Virus record (IMG/VR): IMGVR_UViG_2537561930_000005
Strand: one strand, 5' to 3'
Source: a virus
Lineage: Duplodnaviria > Heunggongvirae > Uroviricota > Caudoviricetes
Length of the DNA stretch: 36,611 nt
Part shown: positions 2,733 through 34,688 of the stretch, piece by piece
Position numbering within the stretch: position 1 is the stretch's first letter
Layout of the letters: every line of letters starts with the position of its first letter
The notes under the pieces: generated by a model
Databases searched by the model: none
Told to the model about the DNA's origin: nothing
Seen by the model: only the letters and a program-made list of their open reading frames with translations
Made by a program: the position numbers and the translations under genes

Positions 2733-3110
2733 GGTATGCACTCCGTTTAATTGGTCGTGCTACCACCAGAGTTCTCACGCTCTTGAATGGTGGTAGCCCA
2801 AGCGGGGGTGAGAATACCGGCAAACGAAGAAACCGGCCTGACCGAAGTCAGCCCCGCCTGAGCCACCATAAATCGGATATGCGCAGGTATATACACACAA
2901 AAAAACACGCTGGCGCGTGTTGTGCGCTTCGTTTATCCGGGTTCTCACGCCCGGCTGCGGAATTTGCCGCAGCGGAGTAACTTTACCGTCAAAACGACGC
3001 ACACGTCAATAATTTGCAAAGACATTTTACCCCGTGACCAGTCACGGGGACAGGTGTTTTTATAGTTTGCTTGAACGAGTGATCAGAAGTTGATCGTTAA
3101 TCAAAGGCCA

Positions 3111-5972: not shown

Positions 5973-6164
5973 TTACTCCCCGTTCACCGAAAAATCACGA
6001 TAGAAACGTTTCCACATACGATAAGTCTGCGCGAGTTGTTCACCACGAAACATCGCCTTCCTGGCCTTCATGTTTTCCTTGTGAGACTTTCGATCTATGA
6101 ACCAAAACCATTGCTGGAACACACAAAGCAAGAGACACAAAGATAATATCCACTGATTACCCAT
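5973..6164 (-). CDS. Small membrane protein (63 aa, MGNQWILSLCLLLCVFQQWFWFI...)
   Basis: ATG at 6164 lies 2 nt upstream of the repA TAA stop (ATGGGTAA), suggesting translational coupling. One clear hydrophobic helix. Confidence 0.3.
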   Translation of the reverse strand: MGNQWILSLCLLLCVFQQWFWFIDRKSHKENMKARKAMFRGEQLAQTYRMWKRFYRDFSVNGE

Positions 6165-9100
6165 AGAAAGCGCCCTGCTCTTCGTAGCTGCATGGGCTAT
6201 TCCCGGTAATGTATTCACGTAACCGCCGCAGTTCATTGCTGGATAAGTGATCCATGAACTCTGTGAGGTACAGAGATGCAAACGTCATAGCTATGCTGGC
6301 TGATGACCATGATGACATAGTGGCCAGCTCCTCACCGGAAAGCGCACTCATCGCCCAGGACTCAGGTACAACCACTGGCAACACAGCCAAAGCCTCAGAA
6401 ATTACTGAATGAGGGGCGTTTTGAACCTGCTCGTTTGTGGATCGCGTTTTATCATCCATATATATATTGAGATCCAAATCGCGATCCATTTCGATGGCGG
6501 TCTTCTCGGCTTTACGCGTTTTCAGGGTTAGGCCATCTTTCTGACGCTGAGCAAGAATATCCAGCATAAATGCCGCTGATTCAGGCTCAACAAAACGCAA
6601 GGTTGGACGCTTATCGCCGTCTCTGCCGCGACGTTTACCTGTTTTAAGGCCAAGAGAGTCGCAAATGTTTTTAAACAACGCTTCCGGCACTTTAGGCTTC
6701 CCTTTTGGCGTCATAAAACCACCAATGTGCAGAACGTTATTCAACAGGTCACGGCGTTCGGCTGTCATGAGGTTATCTCGAGCAAATTTGAGACGCTCCT
6801 GAGTCGCCTCGCCGGTCATAGTCTCAGGGTTGATACCGCAGTCGATAAAGTACTGCCGGAGAGTTGCTGATTTAAGCGCATAGAAACCGCGCGCCCCGAC
6901 TTCAACAGTAGGAGTAGCTTTTACCTTGTGATCGATTATTCCAGGGAATTTAGTTTTAAAGACATCATCAGCCTGCTCGCGAGTCATCGCGGTCACTACA
7001 AAATATTGCCACTGTCCCGCCTGACGGTATGCGTAGGTAAAATTGATGGCTGCTTCTTCCCGGTCGTAACGACGAGCTGTTACCTCATCTAAAAGCATTG
7101 TTTCATAGCGGCGAACTTTGTCTCGAGCACCATCGAAATAGAATTTCAGCGTGCCTTCTTCAACCGGTAGTTTCAGTTCGTTTTCAATATCCCAGCGGAC
7201 AAGTTTTGCCTGTTCTTCAAGCGTCAGCGCGCGTTTTTTTAGCAGTTCTTCACGCTCTGATTCTTGTGGAGTTTCTGTATTGAGATGCAGATCCAGTGTC
7301 TGTTCCCACACAATATCCCGCGCTTCTTTACGCAGCTCTTTACCGATATCATTCGCAGCATAATCGGTGGCCAGCGGCGATACCTTATAACCGTCGCTGT
7401 GCATGATGCAGATCATGTTGCTGGCGTAGTCGTTACGCGCAGTCGCTTCAATAGCGGCTGCTTTAATTTTCATCCTGGTAAAGTCGGTATTGGCCACCCC
7501 CATTGATATACGGTCGCCATCGAAAACGACATCCGTCAGTTCACCGTTCATACCTGCGGTAGCAAGCAATGCCTGGGCGAATGCTCGTTCTATTTTTTGC
7601 GGGTCAGTTTCACGTTTTGCACGAGCTTTATCAAAGCCGATAATAAATTCTTTTGCTGTACGGTCGCGGCGTAGCATTTGCACTGCGTCGCTGGGTACAA
7701 CTTCACCACAGAACATGCCGAAATGACGGTCAAAATGTTTTTGCTCAATCGACACGCCGGATGAAATAGACGGGCTATAAATCAGGCCGTCGTATTTTTT
7801 GACCATCTTTTTCGGTTGATTGGTAAATGCTTCAACTTCTGGCTCTGGTTTGTTTTTCTGGTTTACACACAGAAATTTCTTACCAGGAAAATGCATTCTC
7901 AGGGTGGCTGTCACATCTTCTGCAAAGGTGGAGCTGTCGGTGGCCAACATGATTTTTTCGCCATCCGATACAGCTTTCACCACCTCGGTCATGATGCGAT
8001 CTTTTTCTGTATAAAAAACCCGGATTGGCTCACCTGTTTCGCGGTTGCGAACATCAACAGGTAATTCAATTACGTGGATCTGCAGCCATGCCGGTAAACC
8101 TAGTTCTTCACGGCGTTTCATAGCCAGTTCAGCCAGGTCAACCAGCAGATCATTCGCATCAGCATCCACCATGATTGGGTGTTGTTCTGTTCTGGCCAGC
8201 GCGTCAATTAGCGTATTGAATACAGCCACCGGGTTTTCCATAGCCCGACCGGAAAGAACGGCACGTAGCCCTTGTGTGGCCTCGTCAAAGCCAAAATAGT
8301 CGTGCTGGCGCATCAACGGTTGCCAGCAGTTTTTAACAATCGAGTTTATGCAGATGGTCAGTTTACTGGCGTATGGAGCCATTTCCTGATAGCCAGGATC
8401 CTGATAGTGCAGGATATCGGCTTTTACACCTTTTCCTTCTGTCATCATTTCCCACAGGCCGCCAATAAGGGAGACACGGTGAGCAACAGAGATACCACGT
8501 TCTGAGCTATGCATTAACGGTCGTAACAATCCAGTAGATTTGCCGGAACCCATACCAGCACGGACGATGACTATCCCCTGTAGTGATTGCACGTACTTCA
8601 GGACATCATCGGTCATTACCGAAGTTTCAAAACGCTTATAGGTGATATGTTGAGGGCGTTTATTGGGATCAGTTATGCGTTCGCTGAAAGAGCGCGGAGC
8701 CTGGGCAATACGGCACTTTTTATTCAGGCGACGGGCAATGTGGTCTTTTACCGTAGCGCGATAGATATTTTCCAGTCCCATTTCACGCAGAACGATGCAG
8801 AACATGTTAAATAAATCTGACGGACTGTTAGGAACCGGACAGGTTAGCATGCCAATATCCACCGCTCTCAGCAGCTCTTTGGCAAAAGTACGACGGTTAT
8901 CCCGCTTAATTGTCTTCAGGCGGTTGAGCGTCAGAGATAGCAAATCAGTACCAGTTTTCAGGCGGTTTGCTGTTGCAAATAGTTGACGTGCTGTTTCACG
9001 AAGTCCACGTAGTTTGTGCAGGTCGTTGAAGTCACTGCACTCCATTTGCGGATCGTCTTCAAAAGTTGGATAGACGCAGCGGACATCGTTGAATTTCGAT

Positions 9101-10152
9101 AAGATTTCATAGCCAGTCCGCAGGCCGGTATTCCCTTTTCCTTCTGTGGCAGATTTCCGGTCATTATCCAGTGCGCAGGTGATTTTTGCCGCCGGGTACA
9201 TGTTTACCAGTTGTTCCACAACATGAACCATGTTGTTAGCGGATACAGCGACAACCACAGCGTCAAAGCGTTTATCTTTTTTCGTGGCAAGCCAGATGGA
9301 TGCACCAGTAGCAAAACCTTCTGTAACAGCGATGTTTTGCGCCCCTTTCAGCTCACCGATAACAAAGCAGGCACCGACGAAATCGCCGCTGGTTACTGCG
9401 CTGGTCTGGTATTTTCCACCTTGTTTGTCGATTCGCTGCCAACCCACAATACGACCATCGTAACGACCGTCCAGGTGAGCCAGAGGGATAGCCATATACG
9501 TGGTTGGCCCCCTGCTCCATTTTGCGCTGTCGTGACTGGTCACGCGACGCACATCACACGAATTAAAAACGTCACGAATACCTTTTTTAATCGCATATGG
9601 CCATGAGCCGTCTTCTGCAGGAGCATGTTCCCACGCGCTGTGAAATGCCAGCCATCCCAGCAAACGTTCATGGTCAATTTGGTTGTTTTTCAGGTCATTA
9701 ATTCGTTTTTGTTCTTCACGGCGACGACGTGCTTCGGCCTGACGTTCTATTCTTGCCCGTTCTTCTTCCGGTTGTGCGACCACGGTCGCATTATTCCGTT
9801 GTTGCTCACGGCGATATTCAGAAAACAGGAAGGAGAAACCGCTCCATGAGCCAGCATCGCTGCCTTTATGGACGAAGTTAATGAACGGGTAATCAATCCC
9901 TTTGCTGTGTTCCAGCCGGGAGTAAATTTCTACGCGTCCTTTGAGGCTCTTCTCGAGAGCTTCTGGAGATGTTTTATTGTATGAAGAGTAACGCTCAACA
10001 CCCCCGCGAGGGTTGAGTTGGATGTTGTCGGAACAGGCAGGCCAGTTGATACCAGCCATCTGTGCCAGCTCGGTTAGTTCATCCCGTGCTGCTTCAATTA
10101 GCGAGAACGGATCGCTGCCAAAGCGATCCGCATAGAAATCGTTTAATGTCAT
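6157..10152 (-). CDS. repA: Replication protein RepA, primase-helicase fusion, 1331 aa
   Basis: Giant ORF with Walker A (GMGSGKST) helicase region and N-terminal primase-like region. Size and position (divergent from telN, adjacent to cB) match N15 repA, which I recall is ~1324 aa. Confidence 0.8.
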   Translation of the reverse strand: MTLNDFYADRFGSDPFSLIEAARDELTELAQMAGINWPACSDNIQLNPRGGVERYSSYNKTSPEALEKSLKGRVEIYSRLEHSKGIDYPFINFVHKGSDAGSWSGFSFLFSEYRREQQRNNATVVAQPEEERARIERQAEARRRREEQKRINDLKNNQIDHERLLGWLAFHSAWEHAPAEDGSWPYAIKKGIRDVFNSCDVRRVTSHDSAKWSRGPTTYMAIPLAHLDGRYDGRIVGWQRIDKQGGKYQTSAVTSGDFVGACFVIGELKGAQNIAVTEGFATGASIWLATKKDKRFDAVVVAVSANNMVHVVEQLVNMYPAAKITCALDNDRKSATEGKGNTGLRTGYEILSKFNDVRCVYPTFEDDPQMECSDFNDLHKLRGLRETARQLFATANRLKTGTDLLSLTLNRLKTIKRDNRRTFAKELLRAVDIGMLTCPVPNSPSDLFNMFCIVLREMGLENIYRATVKDHIARRLNKKCRIAQAPRSFSERITDPNKRPQHITYKRFETSVMTDDVLKYVQSLQGIVIVRAGMGSGKSTGLLRPLMHSSERGISVAHRVSLIGGLWEMMTEGKGVKADILHYQDPGYQEMAPYASKLTICINSIVKNCWQPLMRQHDYFGFDEATQGLRAVLSGRAMENPVAVFNTLIDALARTEQHPIMVDADANDLLVDLAELAMKRREELGLPAWLQIHVIELPVDVRNRETGEPIRVFYTEKDRIMTEVVKAVSDGEKIMLATDSSTFAEDVTATLRMHFPGKKFLCVNQKNKPEPEVEAFTNQPKKMVKKYDGLIYSPSISSGVSIEQKHFDRHFGMFCGEVVPSDAVQMLRRDRTAKEFIIGFDKARAKRETDPQKIERAFAQALLATAGMNGELTDVVFDGDRISMGVANTDFTRMKIKAAAIEATARNDYASNMICIMHSDGYKVSPLATDYAANDIGKELRKEARDIVWEQTLDLHLNTETPQESEREELLKKRALTLEEQAKLVRWDIENELKLPVEEGTLKFYFDGARDKVRRYETMLLDEVTARRYDREEAAINFTYAYRQAGQWQYFVVTAMTREQADDVFKTKFPGIIDHKVKATPTVEVGARGFYALKSATLRQYFIDCGINPETMTGEATQERLKFARDNLMTAERRDLLNNVLHIGGFMTPKGKPKVPEALFKNICDSLGLKTGKRRGRDGDKRPTLRFVEPESAAFMLDILAQRQKDGLTLKTRKAEKTAIEMDRDLDLNIYMDDKTRSTNEQVQNAPHSVISEALAVLPVVVPESWAMSALSGEELATMSSWSSASIAMTFASLYLTEFMDHLSSNELRRLREYITGNSPCSYEEQGAFYG
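6436..6490. other. Candidate internal replication origin element within the 3' part of repA
   Basis: Inverted repeat GGATCGCG (6439-6446) / CGCGATCC (6480-6487) flanking an AT-rich spacer containing TATATATAT; three GATC sites within ~50 bp. Confidence 0.3.
9775..9790. other. sopC-like partition (centromere) site copy 1, TGCGACCACGGTCGCA, inside repA
   Basis: 16-bp element with 7-bp inverted arms around AC. Exact 16-mer is repeated at 12218 and 16512. Differs at 2 positions from the F SopB-binding core TGGGACCACGGTCCCA as I recall it. Confidence 0.6.
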
Positions 10153-10273
10153 TTTTTAGCCATTCCATGCGAATTATGTTTTTTCGGGTTGAAAAAATCC
10201 GCAGGAGCAGCCACAATAAACGCATCTTGAATTGACGGAATCCGTCGCTTTGTTGTGGCTGCTTCCTGAAAAG

Positions 10274-10303
10274 GACCCGAGTTTGCCGACTCGGGTTTTT
10301 TTT
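10274..10303 (+). terminator. Rho-independent terminator (stem CCCGAGT/ACTCGGG, loop TTGCCG, T8)
   Basis: Direct read: perfect 7-bp GC-rich stem followed by 8 T on the plus strand, between repA start and cB end. May also act on the minus strand. Confidence 0.6.
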
Positions 10304-10397
10304 CGTCTTTTTTCTGCTGCTGTAACCTGAGTCAACCCACAGAACATATGCCCTGCATTAAACCAGATTTACAGCAAACAATAAACCCCGTATTAAG

Positions 10398-10994
10398 TCA
10401 TCTACCCTCAACCATGAATGATTTGATCGTTCCGACTATTTGGTGAACAAATTCAAGATCGCTTTTCCTGAAGATAGCGCGTTGTGAGTTTGTTCCATCC
10501 AGATAGTAATTTTCATCATCAAAACGGGCTAGGCGCTGGATAGTGATATTTCCTGCAGTATCACGAACCAGAACATCCTCGCCGGGGACCAGTTCCAGCG
10601 CAGAATCGACCAGGAGAAAATCGCCTGGCTGATAGTTTCCCTGCGTAAGATTGCTGATAGTTAACGCATACACAGTATTGCGCTGGCTGATGAATGGCAG
10701 GAATCGCTCAGTATTTGGAACCTGTCCCGGCTTCCACTCTTCATCAGGCCCACTTTCAGTTGTGCCAATAACAGGAATGCGATCAGGGTCATATTCTGTC
10801 CCATATAGCACCCAATGTACTGGCTTGCGTAAGCACTTAGCCAGGGCAATACCTATCTCCAGTGACGGCATTACGTCGCCACGTTCTAAGTTTTGGACGC
10901 CTGCTATAGAGATATCGACAGCCTCAGCAACTTCTCGCAACGTCAGCTTCATCTCTAAACGGCGTGCTTTCAGTCGTTCGCCTCGTGTTTTCAT
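10398..10994 (-). CDS. cB: Prophage repressor CB (CI-like, N-terminal HTH), 198 aa
   Basis: HTH_XRE segment LTLREVAEAVDISIAGVQNLERG, CI/LexA-like C-terminal fold, divergent from a cro-like gene with palindromic operators between them. Confidence 0.8.
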   Translation of the reverse strand: MKTRGERLKARRLEMKLTLREVAEAVDISIAGVQNLERGDVMPSLEIGIALAKCLRKPVHWVLYGTEYDPDRIPVIGTTESGPDEEWKPGQVPNTERFLPFISQRNTVYALTISNLTQGNYQPGDFLLVDSALELVPGEDVLVRDTAGNITIQRLARFDDENYYLDGTNSQRAIFRKSDLEFVHQIVGTIKSFMVEGR

Positions 10995-11016
10995 ACTGTA
11001 ATCATAAATGATCTTC

Positions 11017-11032
11017 TTATAGCTGGCTATAA
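11017..11032. promoter_or_regulatory. Operator OR copy A, TTATAGCTGGCTATAA
   Basis: Near-perfect 16-bp palindrome in the cB-cro divergent intergenic region. Confidence 0.65.
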
Positions 11033-11042
11033 AATTTATTTA

Positions 11043-11058
11043 TTATAGCTGGCTTTAA
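11043..11058. promoter_or_regulatory. Operator OR copy B, TTATAGCTGGCTTTAA
   Basis: Second copy 26 bp centre-to-centre from copy A; TATAAT-like -10 at 11074-11079 just before the cro ATG. Confidence 0.6.
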
Positions 11059-11085
11059 TTATTGTTTATTGTTTATAATAACAAC

Positions 11086-11307
11086 ATGAAACCAGAAGAA
11101 CTTATTCGCCACTTTGGCAGTGTTGAAAAAGCAGCGGCAGGGGTAGGTGTAACACCCGGAGCTGTTTACCAATGGTTAACCGCTGGAGAGATTCCTTCAT
11201 TGCGGCAAAGCGATATTGAAGTTCGTACTGCTTACAAGCTGAAGAGTGACTTTACAACTCGGCGGGTAAAGCAGTCGATTAAGGAGAGTCGTAAGCGTGG
11301 AGCTTGA
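11086..11307 (+). CDS. cro: Cro-like repressor (HTH), 73 aa
   Basis: HTH FGSVEKAAAGVGVTPGAVYQWL; divergent from cB. Possibly leaderless, as the -10 lies immediately upstream. Start codon uncertain. Confidence 0.6.
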   Translation: MKPEELIRHFGSVEKAAAGVGVTPGAVYQWLTAGEIPSLRQSDIEVRTAYKLKSDFTTRRVKQSIKESRKRGA

Positions 11308-12007
11308 GTATATACGCAGCTGCGTCTCTACGGCATTGGCTGATGTTCATTATCGCCAGCGTGGCATTCTGGAGGTCCAGCTTGAGCAGATGCGTCTCGG
11401 TAGATCAGGACGGTTTAACAATAAACCAGTCCGGTCAATCAGTGTGGGGGATGATAACTCATACGAAGTGTCCGTTCCCGCTGAGCCGGTTAGATTCCAC
11501 CAGGGGAAAACATTTAAACAATCATCAATGTTGCTCACTGATATTGATTTTCAGAGCGCCAGCTGGCGCAGGGCTATTTGTCAGTTGAATAACGAGGAAT
11601 CAGCCTGGCTTTATTATTGCTACGGATGCAAGCCTGACTACAACAATGATGTGATTGTTTGTCAGTGGTTATGGCTTGATTTTCTGGTTGCTCATTCGGG
11701 GGGCGGCTTTAAAAAAATGAAGGCCTCCACGAAAAAAGCCATGCGGAAATTGATTTATTACGCGGCACAGCAGGTTAAATCAGAACTTACGTGTGCTGAG
11801 GCAGTTGATGAGAGAGAACAGGACAGGCATCTGAGTTTTCTACTGAATATATCTATTGATAGCTGGAGACAAGATTATAAAGAACGCTGGCTTTTAATTA
11901 AGTCGCGATGTCTGAGCTTAAATCGAACCGCATTATTAAATGCGGCGGAGAAGCGCAGTGAAATCATCAAACGCCATCGGGCAGGAAGTGCCATTCTGCC
12001 TTTGTAA
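11297..12007 (+). CDS. Putative late-gene regulator (Q-like antiterminator?), 236 aa
   Basis: GTG start with RBS AAGGAGAG, overlapping the cro stop. Position matches N15 Q by recollection only; no diagnostic motif verified. Confidence 0.35.
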   Translation: MELEYIRSCVSTALADVHYRQRGILEVQLEQMRLGRSGRFNNKPVRSISVGDDNSYEVSVPAEPVRFHQGKTFKQSSMLLTDIDFQSASWRRAICQLNNEESAWLYYCYGCKPDYNNDVIVCQWLWLDFLVAHSGGGFKKMKASTKKAMRKLIYYAAQQVKSELTCAEAVDEREQDRHLSFLLNISIDSWRQDYKERWLLIKSRCLSLNRTALLNAAEKRSEIIKRHRAGSAILPL

Positions 12008-12260
12008 ACAAGTTATGTTCAGGAAACCGTCGAAGCCAGAATTAAGGTATTCGGGGGTAAGAAATGAATATGTCATCTGGTGTCCAACTTGCGGTTACAG
12101 GACACGACCCGATAGTAATAAGCAGTCTGTAATTGCCGATTGGTATTTATCAAATCAGCCAGGTAATAAGCATATAGAAAATCTTTGGATTAAGCGTTAT
12201 CTGGAAATTAGAGAGGGTGCGACCACGGTCGCACAAGAAAATGAAAATAACGCCATTTAA
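11940..12260 (+). CDS. Small zinc-ribbon protein (CxC...CPTCG), possibly Lar-like
   Basis: Cys pairs CLC and CPTCGY. The ATG at 11940 overlaps the Q-like gene; alternative start at 12015. Confidence 0.3.
   Translation: MRRRSAVKSSNAIGQEVPFCLCKQVMFRKPSKPELRYSGVRNEYVIWCPTCGYRTRPDSNKQSVIADWYLSNQPGNKHIENLWIKRYLEIREGATTVAQENENNAI
12218..12233. other. sopC-like partition site copy 2 (TGCGACCACGGTCGCA)
   Basis: Exact repeat of the 16-mer at 9775; lies within the 3' end of the zinc-ribbon ORF. Confidence 0.6.
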
Positions 12261-12444
12261 ACAGGGGCCGATGACGCATGATGAGGCAGAGCGTCTTTCA
12301 GATACTTATCGGCGGCGTGGTAAGAAAGTTCTGGTTGTTCGTTCTGATTTTTTAGGTGATGGATATTGCGTTTATGTTCATTTACCTGAATCAGAAAGAG
12401 CACCAAAACCATCCAGAACATATCAACAGAAGTTTTGGGCATAG
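12241..12444 (+). CDS. Hypothetical small protein (start uncertain: 12241 or 12271)
   Basis: ORF only; no recognised domain. Confidence 0.3.
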   Translation: MKITPFKQGPMTHDEAERLSDTYRRRGKKVLVVRSDFLGDGYCVYVHLPESERAPKPSRTYQQKFWA

Positions 12445-12467
12445 ATAAACATTGAGGAGAATTATTC

Positions 12468-13067
12468 GTGACTAATCAGATAATTTACGACAGGAAACGG
12501 TCTGATGTAATGATTGACCTTGAAACAATGGGTACTAATACATGTGCTCCAATTGTTTCTATCGGGGCAGTGTTTTTTTCTCCTGAAAGTGAGGAATTAG
12601 GTGCCACTTTTTATGTACCAGTGAATCTCAGAAGCTCGATGTTAAATGGTGGTGTTGCCGATGGTGATACCATTTTATGGTGGTTGCGGCAGAGCAAGGA
12701 AGCCAGAGCCGCAATTTGTACTAATGATGCCCTTGATATTAATGATGCACTTTTTGAATTATCACACTTTATTACTTGCCATGCTTGTAATTTAAAAACA
12801 TTGAAAGTATGGGGAAATGGAGCAACGTTCGATAATGTAATTTTACGCGGCGCTTATGAGCGCGTTGGCTTATCCTGTCCGTGGGAATATTTTAATGATC
12901 AGGATGTTCGAACAATCGTTAATCTTGGTCAGTTTATTGGTTTTAATCCTAAAAAAGATATGCCATTTGATGGCGAACGACACAATGCCCTGGCTGATGC
13001 TATTCATCAGGCTAAATATGTATCTGCAATTTTCTCCCGTCTTGTAAAAGGGCAAGGAGAATCGTAA
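12468..13067 (+). CDS. DnaQ-like 3'-5' exonuclease (DEDDh), 199 aa
   Basis: GTG start with RBS GAGGAG. Motifs MIDLETMG (Exo I D-x-E) and HNALADA (Exo III H-x4-D). Confidence 0.65.
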   Translation: MTNQIIYDRKRSDVMIDLETMGTNTCAPIVSIGAVFFSPESEELGATFYVPVNLRSSMLNGGVADGDTILWWLRQSKEARAAICTNDALDINDALFELSHFITCHACNLKTLKVWGNGATFDNVILRGAYERVGLSCPWEYFNDQDVRTIVNLGQFIGFNPKKDMPFDGERHNALADAIHQAKYVSAIFSRLVKGQGES

Positions 13068-13486
13068 TGGCAAAGGCTTTTACACCAGAACAGAGGGAAG
13101 AACTGAATAAACAAATTGTGGAACTCGTGCGCCTGAATGGACGAGGAACGGTTAGGCAACTTGCGGATGAAACTGGTATTAGCCGGTGTGCTGTTAGTCG
13201 TTTATCAAGAGAGCTTGCTGCCAGTGGTGATTTGTATATCTCTGGCTCCGGGATATTTCTGTCTGCACAAGCACGCAAGGACTGGCAAAACGCCCGTAAA
13301 AAACTATCAAGAGTAAAGCCGAAGAAATCGGTAGTGGTTGATCCAGACCTTATCTGGTCATTACCTGACGGAGAAATACGTCGCTACGACAGGCGCCTGA
13401 ACATGATTTGTCACGATTGTCGGAAGAGCGAAGTTATGCAGCGTGTGTTGGCGTTTTATCAGGGAAATTTTCAGGAGGTGGCGTAG
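13067..13486 (+). CDS. Winged-HTH DNA-binding protein, 139 aa
   Basis: Segment TVRQLADETGISRCAVSRLSREL resembles an HTH. ATG overlaps the upstream stop (TAATG). Confidence 0.45.
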   Translation: MAKAFTPEQREELNKQIVELVRLNGRGTVRQLADETGISRCAVSRLSRELAASGDLYISGSGIFLSAQARKDWQNARKKLSRVKPKKSVVVDPDLIWSLPDGEIRRYDRRLNMICHDCRKSEVMQRVLAFYQGNFQEVA

Positions 13487-13776
13487 TGAATATCGACACC
13501 ACGATAACGATCGATATGGCCCTAAATACCGGTCTGGCACTTCTCGGTTGGTTTTACATCATGTTCAGTGCGGGGAAGTGGGCGGCCTCTGTTTTTCTAA
13601 AGCAGTGGGGAAAGCGCCGCAAACAGGAAAAACGCCAGAAAGCGTTGGAGGCGTTCTATGACGCATTTGAACTTGGCCGCATTGAACCAGGTACAACAGC
13701 CAGGATAGCGACAAAAGGCGACCTGATGATAGTGATGTTCCGACAGGAGAGAGCAGAGAAAGGGGGATCAGCATGA
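13486..13776 (+). CDS. Small membrane protein (~96 aa)
   Basis: GTG at 13486 with RBS AGGAGG 7 nt upstream. Hydrophobic helix LALLGWFYIMF followed by a basic tail. Confidence 0.4.
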   Translation: MNIDTTITIDMALNTGLALLGWFYIMFSAGKWAASVFLKQWGKRRKQEKRQKALEAFYDAFELGRIEPGTTARIATKGDLMIVMFRQERAEKGGSA

Positions 13777-14432
13777 AATTTTCCAAATTTTCTGAGTTGG
13801 TGAATCGTATTTTGTCCAACAACCACAGCCATCGTCGCGATATGGATGTAACAATCGTTGTTCATTCGCCTGGCAGCATTGGTTCAACACCTTCAGTTGA
13901 GGTTCAGTCAATTCACGCTGGTTTTGATTGGGATTCCGGGAAAGTGCTTATTTTCCCAACACAGCCACTGACCACGCTAACACCAGAACAGATTACTGAT
14001 ATTACTGATAGTGTGCGCAAAGGTCAGTCTTGGCACGCATATCAGGAATATAAAAAGCATAAAGAGCAGTTGGAAAAATTGTCGATTGAGTTGGAATCAG
14101 CCAAAAATCACATAGCAGAACTGGAAGCCAAACCTGTAAGCCAAACTTACAAGTTAACTTTTGAGCAATGGCTGGAACAGCAGCATGACAAAATTGATGT
14201 TGATTGTGGATGTGTAAGTACAGAAATGCTTATGCACTGGATAAGGGTCGCGTATGAGGCTGGCAACTCTCCGGTAACTCCGGATGGTCATATTCAGTTT
14301 TCTGTTTCACTTCCTGCAGCATGTGGTGGAGATAAATATTTTATTGATGGTGTATTTCAACCTTTGAGATATGAGCGTGACTGTGAAAAAGCGGTTGTGG
14401 CCGCTGGCGGTGTAGTTAATTGGGTTAAGTAA
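13773..14432 (+). CDS. Hypothetical protein with central coiled coil, 219 aa
   Basis: ATG overlaps the upstream stop (ATGA) with RBS AGGGGGA. No recognised domain. Confidence 0.5.
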   Translation: MKFSKFSELVNRILSNNHSHRRDMDVTIVVHSPGSIGSTPSVEVQSIHAGFDWDSGKVLIFPTQPLTTLTPEQITDITDSVRKGQSWHAYQEYKKHKEQLEKLSIELESAKNHIAELEAKPVSQTYKLTFEQWLEQQHDKIDVDCGCVSTEMLMHWIRVAYEAGNSPVTPDGHIQFSVSLPAACGGDKYFIDGVFQPLRYERDCEKAVVAAGGVVNWVK

Positions 14433-14447
14433 TTTTCAGGAGGATTT

Positions 14448-14774
14448 ATGGCGCTGACAGCTGCAGAACGGCAAAGGAGACGCAGGGAACGGTTGAAGAA
14501 GGAAGGCACATCAAGACGGGACTGGATTCTGGAACCTGACGAGTTACGTATGTTGGGGGAAATTTGTGTATTGCGTAGACCAGGGCGAGTTCCATATTCA
14601 GAGAACGAAGTCATCGGACTGCTGATCAGGAAAAACTATAAGGAGTTGCAGAAACAGCTATCTACTACTTGTCCGCGATGTGGTCAAAGAATGCCTGTTT
14701 CAGAATGCATTTTTGATGGTGAAGGCTCATGCCACCTTACAACCACGAGGCTGAAACTTGCGCTCAAAGTGTGA
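14448..14774 (+). CDS. Hypothetical basic protein with C-terminal zinc ribbon (CPRCG...C..C), 108 aa
   Basis: RBS AGGAGG; Arg-rich N-terminus; Cys cluster. Confidence 0.45.
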   Translation: MALTAAERQRRRRERLKKEGTSRRDWILEPDELRMLGEICVLRRPGRVPYSENEVIGLLIRKNYKELQKQLSTTCPRCGQRMPVSECIFDGEGSCHLTTTRLKLALKV

Positions 14775-14792
14775 CTGGTCACGGAGGGGTAA

Positions 14793-14948
14793 ATGGACAA
14801 AAAGGCATTGCTTTTTGAAATGATACGAAAACGGAGCGAAAAGAGCTTTTCTGATGGTGGTGATGGGCTTTTGGAAGTGGTTGGGCGAGGCGCAGGAAGG
14901 GAACATAAGTATCGGACTACAAAGATATTTAACCAGTTAATCCATTGA
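14793..14948 (+). CDS. Hypothetical small protein (51 aa)
   Basis: Hand-translated ORF not in the supplied track. Strong RBS GGAGGGG 5 nt upstream of the ATG. Confidence 0.3.
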   Translation: MDKKALLFEMIRKRSEKSFSDGGDGLLEVVGRGAGREHKYRTTKIFNQLIH

Positions 14949-14965
14949 AAGCTGGCTATAAAATT
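14945..14965. promoter_or_regulatory. Third copy of the cB operator motif (AGCTGGCTATAAAATTT shared with OR copy A)
   Basis: 17-nt exact match to 11021-11037, in an AT-rich region upstream of the gene at 15017. Confidence 0.5.
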
Positions 14966-15016
14966 TGAGTTTTACCCTGTAATTTTATACAGTATCAAAT
15001 AACCTTTTTTAATTAA

Positions 15017-15235
15017 ATGGTATTAGATTCAATGACTGAAGCACCTGTATCAACTCTTGAAGAACTCGGATCAAACCTAAAAGACATCGACGCCGTTTTG
15101 GATCTGGTTAGCGTTGCTCTGGCTTCTCCAGAAGCCAGCTTGCATCTTGGCGAGATTTCACGACTTGTTAGTATGTCGCGGGAGATAGCTCAGAATTGCC
15201 AACAAGTTATTGCTGTTGAGAGTTTACATCATTGA
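15017..15235 (+). CDS. Hypothetical small acidic protein (72 aa)
   Basis: ORF downstream of the operator-like site; start uncertain. Confidence 0.35.
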   Translation: MVLDSMTEAPVSTLEELGSNLKDIDAVLDLVSVALASPEASLHLGEISRLVSMSREIAQNCQQVIAVESLHH

Positions 15236-15278
15236 TACACACCCCGCCCTTCCGGACGGGGTAGCGAAAAGGGTCTAA

Positions 15279-15566
15279 TCAATAGACGGCATTAATATTA
15301 ATCGTTGCACCGCATGCTTGGGCATATTTTGATAAAGTTTTCATGCTTGCCCCTAAAGGATTGCTTTCCAGGCGGCTGATAGCTGACGGGCGCAATCCCA
15401 TTCGTTCAGCCAGAGCTGACTTCGTTAAACCTGCTCTTTCCCTCATTTCGTATAACATTTCGACCATCTCCAGCTCTTTATCGGCCTCTTCATATCCTTT
15501 GATGGCTTCTGGAGTGTTGAGAAGTTTTTCTTTTACTTCGTTAAACGGGATGCCTTTCGCTTTCAT
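15279..15566 (-). CDS. HTH_XRE antitoxin (HigA-like), 95 aa
   Basis: HTH LTKSALAERMGLRPSAISRLE. ATG overlaps the toxin stop (TGATG); RBS AAGGAG lies within the toxin 3' end. Confidence 0.7.
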   Translation of the reverse strand: MKAKGIPFNEVKEKLLNTPEAIKGYEEADKELEMVEMLYEMRERAGLTKSALAERMGLRPSAISRLESNPLGASMKTLSKYAQACGATININAVY

Positions 15567-15877
15567 CAGTTCATCTCCTTCAGGCGAGTTCTGGCGATTT
15601 CGATAGCCTTCACCGGTGTTTTCTGTGTCTTTTTTACAAATGCATGCAATAGATAAATTTCGTTACCAGTCGCGTAGGCGTACAGCGTTCTTGCGATGTT
15701 TTTATCCCCTACTCGTAGTTCAAAAAGCCCTCCACCTATTACACGGCTATGGGGCATCTTCAGTTTGTTGCCTTCTTTCTCCAGTCGCTCAATTAATCTG
15801 GTCATGCGACCTCGCAAATCATCTGGTAGTTCAAGCAGTTCATCCAGTGCTGCAGGGTGGGTTATCACGTTAAACAT
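15566..15877 (-). CDS. RelE/ParE-superfamily toxin, HigB / Gp49-like, 103 aa
   Basis: Size, toxin-first order and sequence character match the phage Gp49-like (HigB-type) killer family, which was named after N15 gp49. Confidence 0.65.
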   Translation of the reverse strand: MFNVITHPAALDELLELPDDLRGRMTRLIERLEKEGNKLKMPHSRVIGGGLFELRVGDKNIARTLYAYATGNEIYLLHAFVKKTQKTPVKAIEIARTRLKEMN

Positions 15878-28543: not shown

Positions 28544-29122
28544 ATGGCCATAAAAGGTCTTGAGCAGGCCGTTGAAAACCTCAGCCGTATCAGCAGAACG
28601 GCGGTGCCCGGTGCCGCCGCAATGGCCATTAACCGCGTTGCGTCATCCGCGATATCGCAGTCGGTGGCACAGGTTGCCCGTGAGACAAAGGTACGCCGGA
28701 AACTGGTAAAGGAAAGGGCCAGGCTGAAAAGGGCCACGGTCAAAAATCCGCAGGCCAGAATCAAGGTTAACCGGGGGGATTTGCCCGTAATCAGGCTGGG
28801 TAACGCGCGGGTTGTCCTGTCCCGACGCAGGCGTCGTAAAAAGGGGCAGCGTTCAGCCCTGAAAGGTGGCGGCAGTGTGCTTGTGGTGGGAAACCGTCGT
28901 ATTCCCGGCGCGTTTATTCAGCAACTGAAAAATGGCCGGTGGCATGTCATGCAGCGTGTGGCCGGGAAAAACCGTTACCCCATTGATGTGGTGAAAATCC
29001 CGATGGCGGTGCCGCTGACCACGGCGTTTAAACAGAATATTGAACGGATACGGCGTGAACGTCTTCCGAAAGAGCTGGGCTATGCGCTGCAGCATCAACT
29101 GAGAATGGTAATAAAGCGATGA
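28544..29122 (+). CDS. Z: Tail completion protein Z (192 aa)
   Basis: Length and order as in lambda. Confidence 0.9.
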   Translation: MAIKGLEQAVENLSRISRTAVPGAAAMAINRVASSAISQSVAQVARETKVRRKLVKERARLKRATVKNPQARIKVNRGDLPVIRLGNARVVLSRRRRRKKGQRSALKGGGSVLVVGNRRIPGAFIQQLKNGRWHVMQRVAGKNRYPIDVVKIPMAVPLTTAFKQNIERIRRERLPKELGYALQHQLRMVIKR

Positions 29123-33664: not shown

Positions 33665-33990
33665 AAACCTTCCGCTGGAAAGTGAAACCCGGTATGGATG
33701 TGGCTTCGGTCCCTTCTGTAAGAAAGGTGCGCTTTGGTGATGGCTATTCCCAGCGAGCGCCTGCCGGGCTGAATGCCAACCTGAAAACGTACAGCGTGAC
33801 GCTTTCTGTCCCCCGTGAGGAGGCCACGGTACTGGAGTCGTTTCTGGAAGAGCACGGGGGCTGGAAATCCTTTCTGTGGACGCCGCCTTATGAGTGGCGG
33901 CAGATAAAGGTGACCTGCGCAAAATGGTCGTCGCGGGTCAGTATGTTGCGTGTTGAGTTCAGCGCAGAGTTTGAACAGGTGGTGAACTGA
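33661..33990 (+). CDS. M: Tail tip protein M (109 aa)
   Basis: Length and order as in lambda. Confidence 0.9.
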   Translation: MKTFRWKVKPGMDVASVPSVRKVRFGDGYSQRAPAGLNANLKTYSVTLSVPREEATVLESFLEEHGGWKSFLWTPPYEWRQIKVTCAKWSSRVSMLRVEFSAEFEQVVN

Positions 33991-34688
33991 TGCAGGATAT
34001 CCGGCAGGAAACACTGAATGAATGCACCCGTGCGGAGCAGTCGGCCAGCGTGGTGCTCTGGGAAATCGACCTGACAGAGGTCGGTGGAGAACGTTATTTT
34101 TTCTGTAATGAGCAGAACGAAAAAGGTGAGCCGGTCACCTGGCAGGGGCGACAGTATCAGCCGTATCCCATTCAGGGGAGCGGTTTTGAACTGAATGGCA
34201 AAGGCACCAGTACGCGCCCCACGCTGACGGTTTCTAACCTGTACGGTATGGTCACCGGGATGGCGGAAGATATGCAGAGTCTGGTCGGCGGAACGGTGGT
34301 CCGGCGTAAGGTTTACGCCCGTTTTCTGGATGCGGTGAACTTCGTCAACGGAAACAGTTACGCCGATCCGGAGCAGGAGGTGATCAGCCGCTGGCGCATT
34401 GAGCAGTGCAGCGAACTGAGCGCGGTGAGTGCCTCCTTTGTACTGTCCACGCCGACGGAAACGGATGGCGCTGTTTTTCCGGGACGTATCATGCTGGCCA
34501 ACACCTGCACCTGGACCTATCGCGGTGACGAGTGCGGTTATAGCGGTCCGGCTGTCGCGGATGAATATGACCAGCCGACGTCCGATATCACGAAGGATAA
34601 ATGCAGCAAATGCCTGAGCGGTTGTAAGTTCCGCAATAACGTCGGCAACTTTGGCGGCTTCCTTTCCATTAACAAACTTTCGCAGTAA
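33990..34688 (+). CDS. L: Tail tip protein L (232 aa)
   Basis: Length and order as in lambda; Cys cluster near the C-terminus. Confidence 0.9.
   Translation: MQDIRQETLNECTRAEQSASVVLWEIDLTEVGGERYFFCNEQNEKGEPVTWQGRQYQPYPIQGSGFELNGKGTSTRPTLTVSNLYGMVTGMAEDMQSLVGGTVVRRKVYARFLDAVNFVNGNSYADPEQEVISRWRIEQCSELSAVSASFVLSTPTETDGAVFPGRIMLANTCTWTYRGDECGYSGPAVADEYDQPTSDITKDKCSKCLSGCKFRNNVGNFGGFLSINKLSQ

Follow-up and report, generated by a model that had tools for sequence, protein, structure and literature searches.

An OR3-like sequence beside the antC LexA box of an N15-like phage-plasmid is probably a pseudo-operator, or a very weak operator, of the CB repressor

In N15 and phiKO2, the prophage repressor CB has five 16-bp operators that share the pattern T-A-(N)10-T-A (PMC4997575). 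Two of them, OL1 and OL2, lie at the repA promoter, and reuse of the CB operator at further promoters is thereby established in both phages (PMC4997575). The accounts of N15 and phiKO2 describe five CB operators and none at antC (PMC4488713, PMC4997575), and the published CB binding tests cover the OR and OL sites (PMC4997575). According to PMC3121763 and PMC4488713, the AntC protein of N15 is an antirepressor under LexA control; it targets CB, and induction requires it. The window considered here, the whole 36,611-nt stretch of IMG/VR virus record IMGVR_UViG_2537561930_000005 (Caudoviricetes), is assigned to the N15-like (Ravinvirus) linear phage-plasmids, and the part examined is its immB-to-antC segment. 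Within this segment, a 17-mer from the operator OR3 recurs 3.9 kb away, directly upstream of an antC homologue. The distal copy is probably a lineage-specific pseudo-operator or a very weak operator, with LexA acting as the gatekeeper of antC.

The 17-mer AGCTGGCTATAAAATTT occurs exactly at 11021-11037 and at 14950-14966. An initial annotation of the window had reported this recurrence; the exact repeat is confirmed, although its distal copy had been placed one base low, at 14949-14965. The source copy belongs to OR3 (TTATAGCTGGCTATAA, 11017-11032, 22.8 bits in the scoring described below), which is identical to OR3 of N15, and the motif had rightly been read as a CB operator sequence. A second copy appeared in none of 100 dinucleotide shuffles. 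The rest of the window was also replaced by second-order Markov versions, 100 in number, with which the cB-cro spacer gave longest exact matches of 9-14 nt, as against the observed 17. Therefore, the 17-nt match is not due to chance. Its full length arises because the distal copy carries a minority base, C at 14952; T in this position gives a match of 14 nt, a length attained in two of the 100 random models.

To compare the distal copy with the known operators, a half-site position weight matrix (PWM) was built from the five N15 operators and 36,596 window positions were scored. The six top matches were OR3, OR2 (20.9 bits), the distal site (15.5 bits), OR1 (15.4 bits), OL2 (14.9 bits) and a site at 3060-3075 (13.2 bits), and the next match reached 11.4 bits. 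The CB operators of N15 and phiKO2 are two-fold symmetric 16-bp sequences close to TTATAGC-N2-GCTATAA. The distal operator-like 16-mer, TGAAAGCTGGCTATAA at 14946-14961, agrees with OR3 in 14 of 16 bases: its centre and right half are those of OR3, and its left half, TGAAAGCT, matches at six of eight positions, the two exceptions being G2 and A4. About 0.12 sites of this score are expected per random window. A PWM score was nevertheless rejected as proof of binding, because the OR3 of PY54, which is not bound in experiments, scores higher (16.9 bits). This operator differs at outer bases only, and phiKO2 CB binds neither it nor half-sites of OR3 (PMC4997575 section 3.3). The PWM thus overrates sites with peripheral defects, and the score does not decide whether a site belongs to the operator set.

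The structure of the distal site departs from that of the true operators in several respects. T2-A3...T14-A15 was kept by every variant of OR1-3 and OL1-2 recovered from the 49 relatives that yielded these operators. The distal site, which reads TGA...TAA, breaks the T-A-N10-T-A rule by its G at position 2. It ends 3 bp upstream of the putative -35 hexamer of antC (14965-14970) and overlaps neither this nor the putative -10. The true operators do overlap promoter hexamers, OR1 lying on TATAAT and OR3 on a -35-like hexamer of cB. The distal site is also solitary. No partner was found 23-26 bp from it, and no other site above 2.7 bits occurs from -90 to +60 of the LexA box, whereas the true operators are spaced by 26 and 23 bp (OR3-OR2-OR1) and by 23 bp (OL1-OL2). 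Its first three bases are the TGA stop codon of gp47 (14946-14948). A leftward promoter with the TAGCCA of the distal site as its -35, as at OR3, was considered and rejected, the -10 position being TGGTTA. Cro is an unlikely binder as well, given that the Cro protein of phiKO2 accepts no site but an intact OR3 and responds to changes in the outer bases (PMC4997575).

The distribution of the site among relatives is narrow. antC loci were fetched from phage, IMG/VR and genome collections, with the genome-contig scan giving two loci only. The operator-like site is confined to one antC-promoter allele, in which it scores 14.1-15.5 bits. Of the allele found in the window, 18 copies were retrieved, several being duplicate fetches of the same contig; 16 of the 18 read GTTGG, with T at 14952, a 14-nt match and 14.1 bits. 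C at 14952 was found only in one metagenome contig and in NZ_LR883007.1, plasmid 2 of the enterotoxigenic Escherichia coli (ETEC) isolate L5_E1779, which gave the sole 100% match to a 71-nt probe spanning the distal motif. Not one of the 18 copies had regained T at position 2. In the YDC107_1-like clade, CB is 100% identical and OR1-3 are near-identical, yet the distal position carries TGAAAATTGACCGTAA, which scores 0.4 bits. N15 has no site in the same register (-6.5 bits), and the phiKO2-like clade has none at this position, the best nearby reaching 6.4 bits. Being essentially invariant (the same in 48 of 49 loci), OR3 left no room for a test of whether it co-varies with the distal site among relatives.

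The small gene downstream, at 15017-15235 on the + strand, is identified by homology and synteny as antC and would encode a 72-amino-acid (aa), SOS-inducible antirepressor acting on CB (phrog_6301; phrog_10889, 'anti-repressor'). Its product is 54-57% identical to that of an unannotated antC open reading frame (ORF) between N15 genes 47 and 48, AntC has 29 invariant columns across four clades, and the neighbours are those of N15, namely gp46, gp47 and then a convergent RelE/helix-turn-helix (HTH) pair. There are two in-frame ATG starts, at 15017 (72 aa) and at 15032 (67 aa, the RefSeq choice), and the same pair occurs in N15; no obvious Shine-Dalgarno sequence precedes either of them in the window. 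RefSeq lists the gene as 'hypothetical', the N15 RefSeq record leaves it without annotation, and relatives have it as 'hypothetical' or 'putative gp47'. The repeat had been placed upstream of this gene, and it does lie there, adjoining the putative -35 of antC in the 68-nt gap between gp47 and antC.

Ahead of antC lies a near-consensus LexA box, CTGTAATTTTATACAG at 14977-14992 (20-mer CCCTGTAATTTTATACAGTA, 14975-14994), which is homologous to the box preceding N15 antC. Every antC locus fetched has CTGT-N8-ACAGTA ahead of the gene, about 25-60 nt before its start. Across clades, a TTG hexamer is found 17 bp upstream of TACAGT, namely TTGAGT in the window, TTGCGG in N15 and TTGCCA in the phiKO2-like phages. 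From these conserved hexamers we infer the promoter PantC as TTGAGT-17-TACAGT on the + strand (-35 at 14965-14970, -10 at 14988-14993), the LexA box lying across its spacer and -10. Promoter prediction around 14960-15016 had been proposed as a check. A consensus scan of 14700-15400 gave no match at 9 or more of 12 positions, because the two hexamers match the consensus at only 8 of 12, so that the promoter is put forward from conservation and not from the scan. A GC-rich hairpin at 15241-15262, between the convergent antC and HTH antitoxin genes (fold -17.6 kcal/mol, z = -1.2), is likely, on weak evidence, to be the end of the antC transcript; having no T run, it escaped the terminator scan.

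A different 16-mer, of the form T-A-N10-T-A (TTATATACAGTATTAA or TTATACAGTATATTAA, 10-12.6 bits), is present in the N15 and phiKO2-like clades, where it overlaps both the -10 and the right arm of the LexA box. It is located at 39570-39585 in N15 and at +8 from the box in the phiKO2-like loci L025 and L040-L056. Neither the window nor the YDC107_1-like clade carries this 16-mer, the latter having neither kind of site. It could represent CB input at another position of PantC, or the A/T-rich composition of LexA boxes.

The initial annotation had suggested that the prophage repressor controls a second promoter here and silences a distal operon. This reading holds in part, in that the motif is a CB operator sequence of a kind reused at other promoters, but silencing of a distal operon finds no support. 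The downstream unit is a single 72-aa antC followed by a hairpin and not an operon, the LexA box lies over the putative -10 of PantC, and the distal site has G at position 2, stands alone outside the core promoter and is poorly conserved. Both LexA control of PantC and the interaction of AntC with CB are taken from the literature on N15. In a lysogen, host LexA would occupy the box at 14977-14992 and cover the spacer and -10 of PantC. DNA damage would remove LexA and allow AntC to be made, AntC would bind and inactivate CB, and the loss of active CB would in turn derepress repA and the lytic operon of cro and Q. CB alone would occupy the distal site little, and the silence of antC would not depend on it. 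The look-alike would have arisen within one antC-promoter allele, a minority T-to-C change then lengthening the match from 14 to 17 nt.

Several points weigh against this account. The match is far beyond chance, and the distal site ranks among real or probable operators in the PWM top six. A single base change would turn its left half, TGAAAGCT, into a half-site that occurs naturally, TTAAAGCT (the right half of OR2), N15 OL1 tolerates a defect on one side (G at position 1), and the derived C at 14952 shifts the site toward OR3. CB has been credited with rather low binding specificity (PMC4997575), and its GVQNLERG stretch, taken here to belong to the recognition helix, is the same in the window and in N15. 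The position before the one gene whose product acts on CB is suggestive and would be a meaningful place for feedback. Weak auxiliary CB binding at the distal site is conceivable but doubtful. The same grade of doubt attaches to a functional auxiliary operator, in which CB at about -39 to -54 would dampen PantC, for instance by blocking the contact of the alpha subunit C-terminal domain with the A/T tract ATAAAATTT. Expression of antC would in that case require LexA cleavage as well as a fall in CB activity, and AntC would free its own promoter, making induction self-reinforcing and spontaneous induction rarer. The third rank of the site among 36,596 positions, where only 0.12 such sites would be expected and the remaining top matches are operators, its place directly upstream of the antirepressor-promoter -35, and the constancy of all 18 retrieved copies save C/T at 14952, while the gp47 coding flank varies, speak in favour of this possibility. 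It has to accommodate, however, a G at an invariant position that no copy has 'repaired', in vitro results in which half-sites and outer-base-altered sites were unbound, a location that touches neither hexamer and offers no partner for cooperative binding, and the absence of the site from relatives with the same CB and operators. In addition, terminator prediction gave none on the + strand from Q to antC. Read-through from Pcro may therefore already raise antC and supply the feedback, which lessens the need for a dedicated operator. Somewhat less credible is the more specific proposal that one E. coli N15-like sub-lineage gained a weak CB operator beside the antC LexA box by point mutation, leaving antC AND-gated and self-reinforcing.

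Two further explanations carry less weight. Instead of regulating antC, the distal site might anchor CB looping with OR or OL 3.9 kb away and so raise local CB at OR, as in lambda OL-OR looping and with the flanking sites of 186. CB forms tetramers, and possibly octamers, by cross-linking (PMC4997575), and a solitary site outside the core promoter would fit such a role. Nevertheless, OL, about 650 bp from OR, would already serve, and a single weak, defective site missing from most relatives makes a poor loop anchor; looping is thus considered very improbable. Alternatively, GCTATAAAATTT may be a promoter module in both places (a -10-like TATAAA/TAAAAT or an UP-like A/T tract) or a short-patch copy of OR3, which is improbable, though less so than looping. 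phiKO2 has three cro promoters that overlap OR operators and phiKO2-like relatives share the OR3 flank GGCTATAAAATTTAT, the site at 3060-3075 also has TATAAA on the transcribed strand, and the tract adjoins the -35 of PantC. On the other hand, sequence reading and promoter scans found no acceptable -35 16-18 bp upstream of TATAAA/TAAAAT at either location, and the best -35 of an upstream rightward promoter is an unconserved TTAATC. The YDC107_1-like allele has GTAAAG there, indicating that the element is not needed for PantC, and the non-A/T core of the match, AGCTGGC, would be left unexplained. A pseudo-operator or very weak operator at a LexA-gated antC stays the preferred reading.

The operators of the immunity region are all present in the window. 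The prophage repressor gene cB (10398-10994, - strand, ORF) encodes 198 aa with HTH_3 (Pfam 3e-11) and a degenerate S24-like C-terminal domain, and its product is 78% identical to N15 CB. Its neighbour across the OR operators is cro (11086-11307, + strand, ORF; Pfam P22_Cro 2e-22). Tandem near-palindromic operators had been described between the two genes, and they are present at 11017-11032 (OR3) and 11043-11058 (OR2, TTATAGCTGGCTTTAA), with starts 26 bp apart, as in N15, and a gap of 10 bp. The -35-like TAGCCA for leftward cB transcription sits within OR3. That operator list was right as far as it went but missed OR1, OL1, OL2 and the LexA box. The three further operators were located with the help of the annotated CB-binding regions of N15 and the published 16-bp T-A-(N)10-T-A description (PMC4997575). 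OR1 (TTATTGTTTATAATAA, 11066-11081), 23 bp from OR2 as in N15, overlaps the TATAAT (11074-11079) upstream of cro. OL1 (ATATGCCCTGCATTAA, 10346-10361, 6.4 bits) and OL2 (TTACAGCAAACAATAA, 10369-10384) lie upstream of repA (6157-10152, - strand, ORF). They occupy the position homologous to the CB-binding region annotated at 34056-34094 of N15 and have the same 23-bp spacing. Immediately before OL1, the sequence of the window lineage is one base shorter than that of N15 and the phiKO2-like phages, and from the sequences CB control of repA may rest mainly on OL2 in this lineage. In the window lineage (16 loci), only one base (A13T) sets OR2 apart from OR3, whereas three bases separate the two in N15. 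Since phiKO2 Cro binds only OR3, such closeness means that Cro might also recognise OR2 here, altering the switch logic.

The sixth-ranking match lies in the immA anti-immunity locus. CB reportedly controls one of the promoters of N15 immA, a locus with a C4-type CA RNA and icd/antA/antB. In the window, Rfam detects the C4 antisense RNA (2786-2873), isrK (2900-2973) and c4-a1b1 targets (2934-2986), all on the - strand, and the operator-like 16-mer TTATAGTTTGCTTGAA at 3060-3075 is situated upstream of them, in the leader of this C4-type antisense RNA/antA locus. The site is conserved with TTATAGTTTGCTTTAC at 28576 of N15, which scores 15.7 bits and ranks fourth there. The window copy also breaks the T-A-N10-T-A rule because of G at position 14. 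A -10-like TATAAA falls within it on the transcribed strand, a classical occlusion geometry. The initial annotation had cited N15 precedents for repressor control at an antirepressor locus and at repA. The latter stands, as OL1 and OL2 occupy the repA promoter (PMC4997575), and the former is probably immA, a different locus from antC.

Regarding the surroundings, megablast gave 97% identity between 10300-14871 and the Escherichia phages YDC107_1 and PhiR46_1, and about 74% identity of immB to N15 and phiKO2. At about 14871 the identity to YDC107_1 and PhiR46_1 falls from 97% to about 84%, marking a mosaic junction just upstream of the antC promoter. The gp47 homologue at 14793-14948 (+ strand, ORF; phrog_13995) has 51 aa in the window, compared with 80 aa in YDC107_1 and 73 aa in N15, and so carries an internal deletion. 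Downstream of cro, Q (11297-12007, + strand, ORF) is followed in the ORF list by a string of small early genes reaching to antC. On the other side of antC, and convergent on it, are the HTH antitoxin gene (15279-15566, - strand), a homologue of N15 gene 48, and the RelE/ParE-family toxin gene (15566-15877, - strand), a homologue of N15 gene 49. Between repA and cB, a strong hairpin with a T run (GACCCGAGTTTGCCGACTCGGGTTTTTTTT, 10268-10303, + strand) is kept at 33979-34013 of N15, and the matching region of phiKO2 is annotated as 'putative plasmid partitioning site' and terminator.

For the most part, the locus is ordinary, an N15-type SOS-inducible antirepressor promoter, unannotated in RefSeq, beside known CB operators, and its practical value is modest. 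If the look-alike did bind CB, it would place a repressor input on an antirepressor promoter and tune the inducibility of these plasmid-prophages, which occur in ETEC, avian pathogenic E. coli (APEC) and clinical E. coli. antC would then need LexA cleavage, be damped by CB until AntC titrates CB, and run away thereafter. The alleles with no site, with the T variant and with the C variant would form a natural series for the study of operator origin. T-to-C at 14952 would be a further step toward OR3, and operator gain would have been caught in progress among near-identical plasmids.

All five CB operators known from N15 and phiKO2 recur in the window in the same order and with the same spacings of 26, 23 and 23 bp. 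The distal site has the right half and the centre in common with OR3, 13 contiguous bases of the 16, as well as five flanking bases, but it is unlike the five operators in its G2, its solitary and unconserved state and its location off the -35 and -10. The antC of the window resembles that of N15 in its homologous protein, its position, the LexA box over the -10 and the spacing of the TTG -35. In contrast, nothing like an operator stands at -31 from the box in the N15 promoter (-6.5 bits), and an 11.5-bit T-A-N10-T-A 16-mer lies over the LexA box there instead. N15 immA, probably the CB-controlled antirepressor locus invoked earlier, is a different locus with a different antirepressor, and the antC site lies off the putative PantC promoter. 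In lambda, CI at OR2 activates PRM, and OL and OR engage in long-range looping. The window resembles this in that a repressor site directly precedes a -35 and another copy of the operator lies at a distance of a few kb, but the centre of the site would be at about -46.5, not about -42, if the transcript starts near 15000, and it is without a cooperative partner. A further parallel is offered by Tum of coliphage 186 and GfoA/GftA of the Gifsy phages, where an SOS box likewise lies on the promoter of a small protein that inactivates a non-self-cleaving repressor, although the proteins are unrelated and no prophage-repressor operator is reported at their promoters (PMC3121763). Neither the set of CB operators nor the LexA-antC module is new, both having been known from N15 and phiKO2; the window adds another member of each.

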